Source: an uncultured Sterolibacterium sp.
GTDB taxonomy: Bacteria; Pseudomonadota; Gammaproteobacteria; Burkholderiales; Rhodocyclaceae
Assembly (NCBI GenBank): GCA_903832735.1
Contig: CAILCO010000065.1
Location: forward strand, 1,350 to 33,349
DNA length: 32,000 nt
Direction: 5' to 3'
Every line of letters starts with the position of its first letter. Positions within the stretch are counted from its first letter, which is position 1. Position numbers and translations under genes: made by a program. Below are positions 1,629 through 10,557 of this stretch, piece by piece. The notes under the pieces are model-generated. The model did not search any database. It was not told the DNA's origin and saw nothing but the letters and a program-made list of their open reading frames with translations.

Positions 1629-2612
1629 ATGGCCCATTTCTTCAAGCAATTCCTGTTCGCCGCGCTGCTGGCCATCCTGTCGGGCATTGCCGGCGGCGCA
1701 TCTGCCGCCGACGATTATCCCAACCGCACCATCACCATCGTCGTGGCCTATTCGCCGGGCGGCCAGGGCGACGTCTTCGCCCGTCTGGTGGCGCGCCGGC
1801 TGACCGCCACGCTGAAGCAGGCGGTGGTGGTCGACAACAAGCCGGGTGCGACCGGCGCGATCGGCGCGCGCGCCGTCGCCTCGGCCAAGGCCGACGGCTA
1901 TACGCTGCTGCTCGGCCAGACCGGCGAAATAGTGGTCAATGCCTTCGTCTCGCCCGGCCTGAATTACAACGCGCTGAAGGAACTGCGCCCGGTCGTCCTG
2001 GTCGGCGAGTCTCCCCTGGTCCTGGTCGCACCGCTCAATGCGCCGTTCAATACGCCGCAGGAACTGATCCGGGCCGACAAGGCGCATCCGGGTTCGGTCA
2101 ACTACGCTTCCTCGGGTGTGGCCACACCGGGCCATCTGGCGGCCGCGGCGCTGGCGCTCGGGGCGAAGATGGACATGGTCCATGTCCCCTACAAGGGCGC
2201 GGCACCGGCCCTGGCCGACGTGCTCGCCGGTCATGTCCAGATGCTCTTTTCCAGCGCCGCGGCGGCTGTTCCCCAGATCCAGGGGAAACGGCTTAAGGCC
2301 ATCGCGGTGTCCACGCTCGAGCGTATCGCAACCCTGCCGAATATCCCGACGATCGCCGAAACCGTGCTGCCGGGATTCAACTACACGCTCTGGGGCGGAC
2401 TGTTCGCGCCGGCCGCCACGCCGGATGCCATCGTCATTCGCCTGAACAAGGAAGTGAATCTTCTGCTCTCGGAGCCGGCCTTCCGCGCCGAACTGGTCAA
2501 GGACGGCGTGATGCTGCGCAACAATACGCCGGCCGAGTTCGGCGAGTTCGTCCGCCAGGAAGCGCTGAAATACGAACGCTTGGTCAAGGAATCCGGGATC
2601 AAGGGCGAGTGA
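1629..2612 (+). CDS. Bug-family (TctC-like) tripartite tricarboxylate transporter substrate-binding protein
   Basis: Signal peptide MAHFFKQFLFAALLAILSGIAGGASA, then the typical Bug N-terminus DYPNRTITIVVAYSPGGQGD; about 325 aa; motif NYASSGVATPGHLAA; AGGGA RBS upstream. Confidence 0.9.
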   Translation: MAHFFKQFLFAALLAILSGIAGGASAADDYPNRTITIVVAYSPGGQGDVFARLVARRLTATLKQAVVVDNKPGATGAIGARAVASAKADGYTLLLGQTGEIVVNAFVSPGLNYNALKELRPVVLVGESPLVLVAPLNAPFNTPQELIRADKAHPGSVNYASSGVATPGHLAAAALALGAKMDMVHVPYKGAAPALADVLAGHVQMLFSSAAAAVPQIQGKRLKAIAVSTLERIATLPNIPTIAETVLPGFNYTLWGGLFAPAATPDAIVIRLNKEVNLLLSEPAFRAELVKDGVMLRNNTPAEFGEFVRQEALKYERLVKESGIKGE

Positions 2613-6089: not shown

Positions 6090-6116
6090 CTGACAGCCGG
6101 TCCTGCCGGCTGTCAG
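6090..6116. terminator. Perfect 11-bp inverted repeat between convergent genes (possible bidirectional terminator)
   Basis: CTGACAGCCGG-tcctg-CCGGCTGTCAG lies between the OYE stop (6079) and the Bug stop (6113-6115) and overlaps the latter. There is no clear U-tract. Confidence 0.4.
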
Positions 6117-7075
6117 TCCATGGTCTTGATGTTGCTAGCCTTGGCCACCGCGCTCCAGCGCGCGATGTCCGAGGCGATTATCTTGGCGAATTCCTCGGAG
6201 GTCGATCCCGCCGGGGTGACATTGATCGAGTTCATGCGCTCCTGCATCTCCGGCAGTCTGACGATGCGCTGGACTTCGCCCTCGAGTTTCTTGACGATCG
6301 CCGGCGGCGTTCCCGCCGGTGCGAGCAGTCCGCCCCAATACTGGATTTCCAGGTCGGAATAGCCGATCTCGGTCATTGTCGGTACGTTCGGCATCGAACT
6401 TAACCGGCCGTGCGAAGTGACCGCCAGGGCGCGCAATTTGCCGCCCGCGAGCAGGGCGGCGGCCGGGCCGGTGTCGGCCATGGCCAGGAGTACGTCGCCC
6501 CCGAGGATCGCGGTGATCGCCTCGTTGCTGCCCTTGTACTGTATGAATTCGGCCTGGGTACCGGTCTTGATCTTGAACAGTTCGGATGCGAACTGGAAGG
6601 CCGGGCCCGAGCCGGAATAGTTGGACTTGTCCGGATGGGCCTTCATGTAGGCGACCAGTTCCTTCACGTTCTGGAAGGGCTGCGCCGGATTGACCACCAG
6701 GACCAGCGGGAAGGTCGCGATCATCGAGATCGGCGCGAAATCGCGCTGCGGCGAATATGGCAGCTTGGTGTAGAGAATCGGGTTGAATACCAGGTTACCG
6801 GTGGGCGAGAGCAGCAGGGTGTAGCCGTCGGCGGGCGCCTTGGCGACGAAGCTGGTGGCGATGATCCCGGCGGCCCCGGCTTTGTTCTCGACGATCACCG
6901 GCTGACCCAGGCTCTGCGACAGTCTCTGGCCGACCAGTCGTGCCAGGGTGTCCATGCCGCCGCCGGCAGCTTGTCCGACGATGATATGGATAGGCTTGTT
7001 CGGATAGCTTTGAGCCATTGCCGGCGGGGCTGCGATGCAGACCAAGGCGAGCGCGGCGAGGATGCGAAAGCGCAT
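6113..7075 (-). CDS. Bug-family (TctC-like) tripartite tricarboxylate transporter substrate-binding protein
   Basis: MRFRILAALALVCIAAPPAMA signal peptide, then SYPNKPIHIIVGQAAGGGMD. AGGAG lies 6 nt upstream of the ATG at 7075; the track start at 7108 has no RBS. Confidence 0.88.
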   Translation of the reverse strand: MRFRILAALALVCIAAPPAMAQSYPNKPIHIIVGQAAGGGMDTLARLVGQRLSQSLGQPVIVENKAGAAGIIATSFVAKAPADGYTLLLSPTGNLVFNPILYTKLPYSPQRDFAPISMIATFPLVLVVNPAQPFQNVKELVAYMKAHPDKSNYSGSGPAFQFASELFKIKTGTQAEFIQYKGSNEAITAILGGDVLLAMADTGPAAALLAGGKLRALAVTSHGRLSSMPNVPTMTEIGYSDLEIQYWGGLLAPAGTPPAIVKKLEGEVQRIVRLPEMQERMNSINVTPAGSTSEEFAKIIASDIARWSAVAKASNIKTMD

Positions 7076-7284
7076 AACGACTCCTAGAGGGTGTTCTCGA
7101 TTGAGCAATGATCATCCGGCTCGGATGGTACCGCGCCGTCCCGGCTTTGTCGAAGTCGGGCAAGGTCTGCAACTGGAGTCACCCCTTTCATTGGGGCGAG
7201 ACAGGGAATTCGACGAGCGCCGCACGCCGCCTGTCGAGCGACGCAGCGTAGCGGAGGCTCCGGGGCTGGGGGGAAGGTAGTTGG

Positions 7285-7658: not shown

Positions 7659-7881
7659 ATGATAATTTTACAGCCACACATTAGCTTTGATCATGCATGT
7701 AACTTAAACCATTAACTAGATAAGTCTTATTAATAATTGATAGACAATAATAAACAATAGCGTTCGTAGCAATTTTACTCCTCTTGCTTTGTCTCGACGG
7801 GAAAATCATGCTGTCCTATTGACCATGCTTCCGGGTACGGAGGAACATCCGGATAGACCAGACCAATGGGGGACGAGGTGG

Positions 7882-8180
7882 TGGTGCCGGGGACGGGAAT
7901 CGAACCCGTATGGCTTGCGCCGAGGGATTTTCGTCACACTACGGCTTTCGCCGCCAGCTCCCGCTGTTCGTGCGCTGGACTATGCCTTCACCATGGCGCC
8001 GCGCGCTTTAGGTGCTCCCCGTCTAGTCTCTACACCTTCCCCTTGCAGGGCTTGGCTCGGCATTGCCTCTGCGGTATCGCGAGGGGTTTCACCGAATTTG
8101 AGGAGATTCACGCAGGCGCTTTCGCCGCCTGGTGCTCAATTGTCTAAGTCCCTTGTGTCTACCAATTTCACCACCCCGGC
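7882..8180 (-). tRNA. tRNA-Leu(UAA) gene interrupted by a group I intron (exon 1 8180-8146, exon 2 7931-7882)
   Basis: Minus-strand exon 1 is GCCGGGGTGGTGAAATTGGTAGACACAAGGGACTT. Exon 2 is AAAATCCCTCGGCGCAAGCCATACGGGTTCGATTCCCGTCCCCGGCACCA. Joined, they give an 85-nt cloverleaf. Acceptor GCCGGGG/CCCCGGC; D-arm GTG-AAATTGGTAGA-CAC; anticodon stem AGGGA/TCCCT; loop CU-UAA-AA. Long variable arm GGC-GCAA-GCC; T-arm ACGGG-TTCGATT-CCCGT; discriminator A and an encoded CCA. Confidence 0.9.
7932..8145 (-). ncRNA. Group I intron (IC3-like, 214 nt, no ORF) between U34 and A35 of the tRNA-Leu anticodon
   Basis: The intron follows a U, which can pair as U-G with an internal guide GAG (intron nt 9-11). 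It ends in G at 7932 (omega-G). Conserved core elements: P CAAATTCGGTGAAACC, Q GGCAATGCCGAGCCAAGC, R GAAGGTGTAGAGACTAGACGG, S GGCATAGTCCAGCGC. Pairings UUCGG/CCGAG (P4) and GACUA/UAGUC (P7). Two GAAA-capped hairpins: CAGGCGGCGAAAGCGCCTG and CGGCGAAAGCCG. The core is nearly identical to what I recall of the Azoarcus tRNA-Ile and Anabaena tRNA-Leu introns. Confidence 0.88.
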
Positions 8181-8192
8181 AGGGGAATCGGT

Positions 8193-8198
8193 ATTCTA
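8193..8198 (-). promoter_or_regulatory. Putative -10 element (TAGAAT) of the tRNA-Leu promoter
   Basis: Minus strand: TAGAAT lies 12 nt upstream of tRNA position 1. No convincing -35 was found. Confidence 0.35.
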
Positions 8199-8428
8199 CA
8201 GGCGCGCGTAAATCGTGCGTAATATTCAGCGCAAAATTGCGTAACGCATCTCGCGCAGCCGGTTTCGCTCTCTGGCCCCGAAAAGGGCCGAAATCGGGGC
8301 CAGGATCGATTTCCGATTGTTGCTGAGGTCTCGGTATGGACGGACCCAGCAAAGCGTCACAGAGGCTCGGCAACAGCCCGCGAAAGCCGTTTTGGCTTTC
8401 AGGAAAGCAAACGAGAGGGAGGGCAACG

Positions 8429-8944
8429 ATGACCAAGAGCAAGTTCCGCGCGGCTGGCGTGGCGATCCTGGGCGGGGCGGCGCTCCTTGTCTGTAGCGCC
8501 GGGGAGGCGCAAGGCACCGGCCCGTTCACTCGGGTCGACAGCCAGCCGCTAGAAGAAACCTGGGTGAACGCCGGTTTCTACTCCTATCATTTCCAGCGCG
8601 ACAAGGGCCTCAACGACAGCAATCCCGGCCTCGGTGTCGAATACCGCAGCTCCACGGTCACGGCGGTCACCGCGGGACGGTTTTACAACAGCGACCGGCG
8701 CTATTCGAATTACGCCGGGATTTATTATCAGCCCTTCGCCATTGGCAGCGTGCGCCTGGGCGCCGTGCTCGGCGGCTTCAACGGCTACCCCCGGATGCGC
8801 GACGGCGGCTGGTTCCTGGCCGCGATACCGGTCGCCAGCCTGGAATATCAGCGCTTCGGCATCAACCTGGGCTTCGTGCCGAGCTATCAGGACCGGCTCT
8901 ATGGTGCGCTATCGGTCCAGCTGAGACTGAAGGTTTTTGATTGA
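8429..8944 (+). CDS. Small outer-membrane beta-barrel protein, PagP-like (possible lipid A palmitoyltransferase)
   Basis: GAGAGGGAGGG RBS; signal peptide MTKSKFRAAGVAILGGAALLVCSAGEAQG; about 170 aa. Alternating beta-strand pattern ending in an aromatic residue (LRLKVFD). YSYHFQRD and FYNSDRRYSNYAGIYY resemble the PagP WHARF...FKDSWNKWEPIAGYGW segments. The family call is tentative. Confidence 0.7.
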   Translation: MTKSKFRAAGVAILGGAALLVCSAGEAQGTGPFTRVDSQPLEETWVNAGFYSYHFQRDKGLNDSNPGLGVEYRSSTVTAVTAGRFYNSDRRYSNYAGIYYQPFAIGSVRLGAVLGGFNGYPRMRDGGWFLAAIPVASLEYQRFGINLGFVPSYQDRLYGALSVQLRLKVFD

Positions 8945-9450: not shown

Positions 9451-10557
9451 TTAGAGCAGGAAGCTAGCGCCGGCCAAGGCCGCGGCACCAACGGCCAAGC
9501 CTAGCAGCAGGGCGATGAGCACCTGTCGCCAAAGGCCGCCGGCCGGTTTCTCCTCCCGGGCACTGCGCTCATCGATTTCGGGCGCCATGAACTGCGGCAC
9601 CGGAAAGCCGGGGCTGGCCGGCCGATTTGCCGCAGGCTGCGGCGCAGAGGCGGAGCGGGAAGATGGCTGAACTGCCGGCTGAACTGCCGTCTCCGGCGCG
9701 AGCGGCGGCGTTGCGGCAGGCGGCGCGGGGAGCAGGCTGGCGACCATTTCGCCGGCTATCGCCGCACTAACGAAGCGGGCGTTACGGTGATAGGCGGTGA
9801 GCAGGCAGAAGTCGCAGAGTCGGTTGATGGTCAGGGGGTTGCCGTGCGCGGTGGCATGGATGATGGCCATGCTCTCGGAGGGAAACAGCGCATCGGATCC
9901 TCCGGCGACGCGCAGACGATGGCGGATATAGGCATCGCTATCCGCCTGGTCGAGATTTCGCAGTTGCAGCGTCAGACCGGCTCTTCGTTGCAGCGCCTGC
10001 AGGGCGGGCGCATCCAGCCGCTCCGCGAGCTTGCCCTTGGCGTCCTGGCCGAGCTGGCTGAACAGGACGATCTGGATCAGCTGCCGCTCGGCCGTCGCGA
10101 TTCCGGCGATCTGCGCCAAGCCTTCCAGGGTACTGCTGGGCAGTAGATGCGCCTCGTCGATCACCAAGACCACCCGCCGTCCGATATGGTCGAGCTCGAT
10201 CAGTCTGTCCCTCAGTGCGGCGATGATCTCCGCTTCGCGCAGGGGCGTATCCGTCGCTGCCGTTTCGGTGATCAGGATGGCGTGGCGGATCGCCTCCAGG
10301 ATTTCTTCATGCGAGCTCCACGGATTGCTGATCTCGACCACGATGTGGCTATCGATCAGGCTGGCCTTCAAGGCCTGGGCCAGCGTCGTCTTGCCGGTGC
10401 CGACGTCGCCGGTGATGAGTATCGTTCCCCGGCCCTCCAGTACTCCTTCGAGCAAGCCAGCCATGGCCTCGCGGTTGCCCTCGCCGGCGAAAAAGAACAG
10501 CGGGTCCGGGGTGTTGCGAAAGGGCGCGCGTTCAAGGCGGAAATGACTTAGGTACAT
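9451..10557 (-). CDS. ExeA/GspA-like AAA ATPase with a Pro/Ala-rich linker and a C-terminal transmembrane anchor
   Basis: MYLSHFRLERAPFRNTPDPLFFF (ExeA-type N-terminus), Walker A GDVGTGKTT, Walker B VVLVIDEAH. PAPPAATPPLAPETAVQPAVQP linker and a terminal helix VLIALLLGLAVGAAALAGASFLL. Confidence 0.85.
   Translation of the reverse strand: MYLSHFRLERAPFRNTPDPLFFFAGEGNREAMAGLLEGVLEGRGTILITGDVGTGKTTLAQALKASLIDSHIVVEISNPWSSHEEILEAIRHAILITETAATDTPLREAEIIAALRDRLIELDHIGRRVVLVIDEAHLLPSSTLEGLAQIAGIATAERQLIQIVLFSQLGQDAKGKLAERLDAPALQALQRRAGLTLQLRNLDQADSDAYIRHRLRVAGGSDALFPSESMAIIHATAHGNPLTINRLCDFCLLTAYHRNARFVSAAIAGEMVASLLPAPPAATPPLAPETAVQPAVQPSSRSASAPQPAANRPASPGFPVPQFMAPEIDERSAREEKPAGGLWRQVLIALLLGLAVGAAALAGASFLL

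Follow-up and report, generated by a model that had tools for sequence, protein, structure and literature searches.

A tRNA-Leu(UAA) gene split at U34/A35 by a compact IC3-type group I intron in the genome of an uncultured bacterium

The window, a 32,000-nt stretch of DNA analysed at its full length, very probably carries a functional tRNA-Leu(UAA) gene, which belongs to an uncultured bacterium, probably one of the Comamonadaceae, and is split at U34/A35 by a 214-nt, ORF-less IC3-type group I intron. Judged by sequence comparison, the insert is a genuine IC3-type group I intron at this site of the tRNA, and it is a further member of a known and widespread family, found mostly in Proteobacteria, within which it is not special; its expression and splicing activity are what we infer. 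A sequence-only reading of the same DNA had proposed an ORF-less group I intron at this position in a GC-rich genome, and the proposal held: the genome has 63% GC and the intron 61%, and the organism is probably betaproteobacterial.

Gene structure, model scores and fold

The tRNA gene lies on the minus strand, where 8180-8146 and 7931-7882 join into an 85-nt tRNA-Leu(UAA) with an encoded CCA and the intron between U34 and A35, exactly as had been read from the letters. The 5′ exon (8146-8180, minus strand; 35 nt; GCCGGGGTGGTGAAATTGGTAGACACAAGGGACTT), delimited by ARAGORN -i, the call on the joined exons and direct sequence reading, comprises the 5′ strand of the acceptor stem, the D arm, the 5′ strand of the anticodon stem, and C32, U33 and U34. 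The 3′ exon (7882-7931, minus strand; 50 nt), delimited by ARAGORN, supplies A35 and A36, the 3′ strand of the anticodon stem, a long variable arm, the T arm, the 3′ strand of the acceptor stem, the discriminator A and CCA. Joining creates a tRNA whose anticodon loop is 7 nt long (CUUAAAA) and which has a long variable arm and discriminator A. The insert, expected to start after a U and to end in G, was located at 8145-7932 (feature 7932-8145, minus strand; 214 nt); it opens with AGACAA, its A directly after U34, and closes with GACG, whose terminal G (omega-G) is at 7932. ARAGORN with intron detection called a tRNA-Leu(taa) whose anticodon loop is interrupted by a 214-nt intron, and the joined exons alone were called as an 85-nt tRNA-Leu(taa), whereas default ARAGORN, with no intron detection, returned zero tRNAs across the whole window. 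A promoter and terminator scan called none on the minus strand of the tRNA gene; by eye, a TAGAAT hexamer is present at 8198-8193, 12 nt upstream of the mature 5′ end.

At gathering thresholds, Rfam gave no match anywhere in the window. When 7780-8280 (501 nt) was searched with an E-value threshold, the intron matched Intron_gpI (RF00028) over its full length (model 1-253 of 253) with 45.7 bits and an E-value of 1.5e-10, which is highly significant though short of the curated gathering cut-off of 50 bits. According to the survey by Williams, the Rfam seed was without bacterial sequences and the survey's own threshold was set much lower (Williams, 2020, bioRxiv 10.1101/2020.01.27.920355). A covariance model of the family (R1), built from 44 other trnL(UAA) introns with that of the window left out, scored 182.5 bits (E 4e-51, positions 1-215 of 215), and the trnL intron was its sole match in 32 kb on both strands. 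The value of the finding is mostly practical, in that neither default tRNA finders nor Rfam at the curated threshold detects the split gene. tRNAscan-SE is stated not to handle group I introns (PMC8450103), and such genomes would therefore appear to be without tRNA-Leu(UAA) in routine annotation.

The secondary structure, P1 to P9, was drawn by hand on the intron sequence and counted on a MAFFT alignment of the window and 78 homologous introns (79 sequences). Standard pairs occupied 89.3% of cells, compared with 31.6-46.5% when the 3′ partners were slid by 1-3 columns; both-sided changes were seen in 43 of 68 pairs, and none of 500 shuffles reached the observed measures. P3, P4, P6, P7 and P8 were paired in 100% of the aligned sequences, so that the P3, P7 and P4-P6 pairings, singled out beforehand as the helices to check, can form. 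The columns CTTAG, GAGCCAAG and AAGGTGTAGAGACT were preset by the search pattern, and their invariance is thus no evidence. Minimum free energy (MFE) folding recovered P3, P4, P5, P6a and the P9 domain; however, the MFE of the intron was not better than that of shuffled sequence (z = -0.83), and the evidence for the fold is therefore comparative rather than thermodynamic.

All helices are given on the minus strand. In P1 (8135-8148), CUU of the exon and AG of the intron (8148-8144) pair with the guide UUGAG (8139-8135) around an ACAA loop, and U34 makes a U·G wobble at the 5′ splice site; over 77 distinct sequences 99.5% of P1 cells were paired in an alignment in which the CTTAG strand was fixed by the search pattern and the guide strand was free, and the wobble was present in 77/77. 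U precedes the intron (-1) and G closes it in each of the 83 family members delimited by ARAGORN. The P2 hairpin (8109-8134), capped by a GAAA tetraloop at 8123-8120, changes on both sides in 8 of its 10 pairs, and its paired fraction falls to 77% of cells because the MAFFT register slips midway along the stem. The 5′ strand of P3 (CUCCUC, 8100-8105) pairs with GGGGAG at 8020-8015 (3′ strand, 8015-8020), with 100% of cells paired and 5/6 pairs covarying in the 79-sequence count. P4 (8095-8090 with 8062-8057; 8057-8095 in all) encloses J4/5 and the P5 hairpin (8084-8066); P4 is 100% paired, and both P4 and P5 appear in the MFE fold. In the next element (8034-8056), counted on the same alignment, P6 (GCC/GGU) is 100% paired yet invariant, and P6a, a hairpin with a GCAA loop, is 94% paired with 4/4 pairs covarying. 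The 5′ strand of P7 (GACUA, 8024-8028), inside GUAGAGACUAGACGG (J6/7-P7), pairs with 7982-7978 in 100% of sequences, and this GACUA/UAGUC helix crosses P3 to form the P3/P7 pseudoknot. P8 (7989-8014), composed of CACC/GGUG and an inner GCGC/GCGC stem, is 100% paired with 3/4 pairs covarying, and is followed by J8/7 (AAGGCA) and the P7 3′ strand UAGUC (7978-7988), which fall in a 20-nt identity to the Azoarcus seed. The P9 domain (7935-7974) consists of P9 (CGCAC/GUGUG), P9a with a GGGA loop and P9b with a GAAA tetraloop (7949-7946); the whole domain was recovered in the MFE fold, and P9b is 96% paired with 4/5 pairs covarying. Every motif quoted in the sequence-only reading is present, namely the GAG guide, CAAATTCGGTGAAACC, GGCAATGCCGAGCCAAGC, GAAGGTGTAGAGACTAGACGG, GGCATAGTCCAGCGC and the two GAAA-capped hairpins.

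Predicted splicing and decoding

By the standard group I pathway, to each step of which the sequence conforms, the pre-tRNA would be transcribed and its intron would fold into P1-P9 with the P3/P7 pseudoknot, the internal guide UUGAG pairing with C32-U33-U34 and the first two intron bases so that the 5′ splice site is marked by the U·G wobble. A free guanosine would bind in P7 and attack after U34, the terminal G (7932) would then take the guanosine site, and the freed 3′-OH of U34 would attack after the terminal G, so that the ligated exons form the anticodon loop CUUAAAA. Once the first step is complete, the guide UU could pair with A35-A36 in a 2-bp P10, as read from the sequence, and normal end processing would yield a UUA-reading tRNA. 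Two core stretches, 21 nt in J6/7-P7 (GAAGGUGUAGAGACUAGACGG) and 20 nt across P8-J8/7-P7′ (AUGGUGAAGGCAUAGUCCAG), match the Azoarcus olearius tRNA-Ile intron seed at every position, and it is this identity of P7 and J8/7 to the Azoarcus ribozyme that suggests guanosine-dependent self-splicing.

The earlier view that decoding of both UUA and UUG would depend on splicing was too broad. UUG is also read by tRNA-Leu(CAA), so strict dependence would apply at most to UUA. Across 15 window ORFs, some of which may not be real genes, UUA is rare though in use, accounting for 6 of 676 leucine codons, and UUG accounts for 67.

It is very unlikely that the gene is a decaying, non-functional copy whose intron no longer splices while the functional tRNA comes from an intron-less trnL(UAA) at another place in the genome. 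The view of tRNA genes covers 32 kb of the genome only, and coexistence of the two forms does occur, as in the viral contig L271, where an intron-less trnL(UAA) occurs together with a split one; however, all core helices are intact, ARAGORN scores a normal tRNA-Leu with discriminator A and CCA, and the family model fits the intron over its full length. The split gene is also identical in five metagenome contigs from four assemblies (L001 and L005 coming from different samples of one project), and several metagenome assemblies in ENA, NCBI and Logan contain the organism of the window, on contigs of up to 123 kb (ENA ERZ18660293 scaffold_45). The 38-nt spliced junction GGTAGACACAAGGGACTTAAAATCCCTCGGCGCAAGCC is present exactly in more than 120 metagenome contigs (L126-L245), and no intron-less allele of the species of the window was seen in them. 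Their tRNAs otherwise differ by 3-23 bases, none being closer than 3 mismatches, and they have no flanks in common with the window; these contigs hold genes of other organisms. The part of the tRNA from the D stem to the variable arm is widely conserved in intron-less genes.

Distribution and lineage

Species-representative genomes were scanned with the pattern CTTAG..GAGCCAAG..AAGGTGTAGAGACT, which returned at least 119 loci. Of the 119 loci listed, ARAGORN -i called 78 as tRNA-Leu(UAA) interrupted at the same site, by introns 190-257 nt long that all follow a U (-1) and end in G, and 18 further listed loci became tRNA-Leu(UAA) after splice sites were placed by hand, so that split trnL(UAA) genes occur in at least 96 species of the representative set. 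Among the matches listed, most are Alphaproteobacteria by record title, including Sphingomonas, Sphingobium, Novosphingobium, Rhizobium, Ensifer, Bradyrhizobium, Devosia, Roseobacter, Asticcacaulis, Reyranella and Acetobacteraceae; cultured species are represented in Sphingomonas, Sphingobium, Rhizobium, Bradyrhizobium, Roseobacter, Reyranella and Asticcacaulis. The listed matches also include four Comamonadaceae (Rhodoferax, Polaromonas, Limnohabitans and one MAG), members of the Acidobacteriota, Bdellovibrionota, Bacteroidota and Verrucomicrobiota, and only five cyanobacterial records, none of them called as trnL(UAA); the scan pattern largely excludes cyanobacteria, since the R element of the Synechococcus seed reads GCAGAGACU. 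At 214 nt, the window intron falls in the middle of the length range of the matches listed.

A trnL(UAA) intron reportedly also occurs in a gamma-proteobacterium, as Vepritskiy et al. are said to have described in J Bacteriol in 2002. Williams (2020, bioRxiv 10.1101/2020.01.27.920355) gives 5292 group-I-split tRNA genes in ∼80,000 genomes and names Leu.3Ug as one of four classical types. With this classical type and the at least 96 species found here, the statement that such introns are only sporadic outside cyanobacteria and plastids, which the sequence-only reading had repeated, is out of date. Biologically, the window adds one more Comamonadaceae-type sequence to a large, already surveyed family, and the family (at least 96 species, 190-257 nt among the matches listed) is a good source of compact, GC-rich IC3 ribozymes. 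Sphingobium sp. AN641 has two split trnL(UAA) loci with differing introns on two contigs (L090, 3857-4081; L096, 2859-3078).

The closest introns among the matches listed were those of Rhodoferax (85% identity), Limnohabitans (79%), Polaromonas (78%) and a Comamonadaceae MAG (75%), and alphaproteobacterial-type introns among the same matches were 65-69% identical. Against seed sequences taken from the supplement of Williams (2020), identities were 71% for Ncf2.Leu.3Ug, 68% for Bba346.Leu.3Cg, 68% for Thr.3Ug, 66% for Arg.5Ug, 60% for Azoarcus Ile2 and 58% for Synechococcus Leu. In a neighbour-joining tree on 202 columns, the window and the four Comamonadaceae introns formed a clade in 99.5% of bootstraps; this clade was sister to the Leu.3Cg seed in 81%, joined the cyanobacterial sequence in 1% and never joined Azoarcus (0%), and the GC-rich Leu.3Ug seed Ncf2 fell among Sphingomonas and Sphingobium introns. 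A tree of ∼200 nt is weak for deep branches, and it was accordingly read only as placing one lineage within Comamonadaceae and as speaking against a recent cyanobacterial import. On these comparisons, the best explanation is that the intron belongs to a lineage common to Rhodoferax, Limnohabitans, Polaromonas and other Comamonadaceae, which would be a branch of the widespread trnL(UAA) intron family.

Relative to Leu.3Ug (seed Ncf2.Leu.3Ug), the tRNA, the site, the U at -1 and the G at the intron end are the same, and the P1-P9 layout, the GAAA-capped P2 and the GGCGGCGAAAGCCG hairpin in P9 are common to both. The window differs, however, in its short P1 loop, its longer P5, its CGCAC/GUGUG P9, the GCACC that stands where Leu.3Ug has GUGC after P1, and its J8/7, which reads GGCAUAGUCC as opposed to GGGAUAGUCC. 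From the alphaproteobacterial type as a whole, with 65-71% identity, it is set apart by its place in a Comamonadaceae sub-lineage.

The cyanobacterial and plastid trnL(UAA) intron, known from Anabaena, Synechococcus and chloroplasts (Xu et al., 1990, as cited in PMC3984707), has the same host tRNA, insertion site and IC3 fold, and a recent horizontal transfer from a cyanobacterium or plastid would account for the common U34/A35 site. Such a transfer is highly improbable, however, as the intron is 58% identical to the Synechococcus elongatus seed and 71% to the alphaproteobacterial-type Leu intron, and even proteobacterial introns in other tRNAs (66-68%) exceed the cyanobacterial value. Exact stretches in common with the Synechococcus elongatus seed do not exceed 14 nt, GC content is 61% in the window intron and 47% in the seed, and the R element reads GUAGAGACU in the window and GCAGAGACU in the seed. 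Grouping with the cyanobacterial sequence in 1% of bootstraps argues in the same direction, and the tight clade with introns of Comamonadaceae hosts fits inheritance within that family. By seed identities and by the tree, the intron is thus nearer to other proteobacterial tRNA introns than to the cyanobacterial trnL intron.

The Azoarcus tRNA-Ile(CAU) intron (seed Aol6.Ile2.5Ug), a ribozyme that serves as a structural model, likewise has an IC3 fold and a GAAA-capped P2, and the similarity in size noted at the outset was borne out, with 214 nt in the window and 208 nt, exon bases included, in the Azoarcus seed row of the Williams alignment. It interrupts a different tRNA at a different site (after position 36), however, is 60% identical overall, has a single GAAA hairpin as P9 where the window has a three-helix domain, and never grouped with the window clade (0% of bootstraps).

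Leu.3Cg introns of Proteobacteria number 72 cases in Williams (2020, bioRxiv 10.1101/2020.01.27.920355). The seed Bba346 starts CUC/AG, the slash marking the splice site, and its mature anticodon, read from the seed row, would be CAA. This intron is 68% identical to that of the window and has the GCCGAGCC P4′ strand (CUAAUGCCGAGCC) in common with it, but it belongs to a different tRNA-Leu isoacceptor and has C at -1, which makes a C-G pair at the splice site. The sister relation between the Comamonadaceae trnL(UAA) introns and Leu.3Cg hints at intron movement between tRNA-Leu isoacceptor genes. In a joint reading that we regard as very unlikely, guanosine-dependent splicing would gate the translation of the few UUA-containing genes, provided that the split gene is the sole UUA decoder, and, separately, the Leu.3Cg relation would record an intron jump between isoacceptor genes. 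Control through tRNA-Leu(UAA) is known from bldA of Streptomyces; the gating, if true, would be a ribozyme counterpart of it, and the jump, if true, would have left two closely related ribozymes as a natural U(-1)/C(-1) pair.

Overlapping ORFs, viral tRNA arrays and neighbouring genes

Three ORFs of 93-146 aa cross the tRNA gene, at 7789-8211 (+), 7866-8147 (+) and 8089-8529 (-). None of them has a Pfam match, including the two mechanical ORFs on the plus strand, and the gene calls of the source assemblies include none of the three, nor any other gene within the intron interval; these ORFs are best treated as spurious. The probability that this is an actively mobile homing intron is close to nil: bacterial group I introns are often mobile and related introns occur in phage tRNA arrays, but at 214 nt the intron is too short to hold an endonuclease gene, no gene was called in it, and the ORFs antisense to it are without a Pfam match. 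An endonuclease-bearing mobile intron was thus rejected on the evidence weighed above, as were a pseudogene and a recent cyanobacterial import.

Introns of the same kind as that of the window also interrupt some of the genes in tRNA arrays of IMG/VR viral contigs, at 112-6132 in L260 (IMGVR_UViG_3300034013_000942), 4008-9153 in L273, 87-1620 in L271 and 2125-2404 in L254. L260 holds 19 tRNA genes in 10 kb, three of them, Thr(GGU), Leu(UAA) and Met(CAU), split by introns of ∼200 nt, and L271 carries the intron-less and the split trnL(UAA) already mentioned. The bacterial trnL model scored at least 157 bits (mostly 170-198) on 33 of 39 viral contigs, whose GC content is 0.37-0.52. Phages could be carriers of trnL introns between hosts.

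The genes scanned up to ∼6 kb from the tRNA gene include no integrase or other mobile-element gene. The neighbouring genes include two TctC/Bug-family periplasmic receptors (1629-2612, plus strand; 6113-7108, minus strand), a small metabolic cluster between them (Iso_dh, amidohydrolase and an OYE-type flavin oxidoreductase) and a DUF3563 gene, and a 368-aa AAA_22/AAA_16 ATPase is encoded 1.3 kb upstream of the tRNA gene (9451-10557, minus strand). Three hints make the Comamonadaceae the probable family of the organism, namely the TctC/Bug receptors and DUF3563 among the neighbouring genes, the Comamonadaceae hosts of the intron clade, and the plasmid match of a neighbouring gene given below. 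When nine window proteins were searched by tblastn, no matching gene neighbourhood was found in any genome locus among the matches listed; the only match in the four Comamonadaceae loci listed was a TctC paralog with 37-41% identity in L035. In a tblastn search of one neighbouring gene against plasmids, the best match was to a Comamonadaceae bacterium (79%), followed by the next at 54%.
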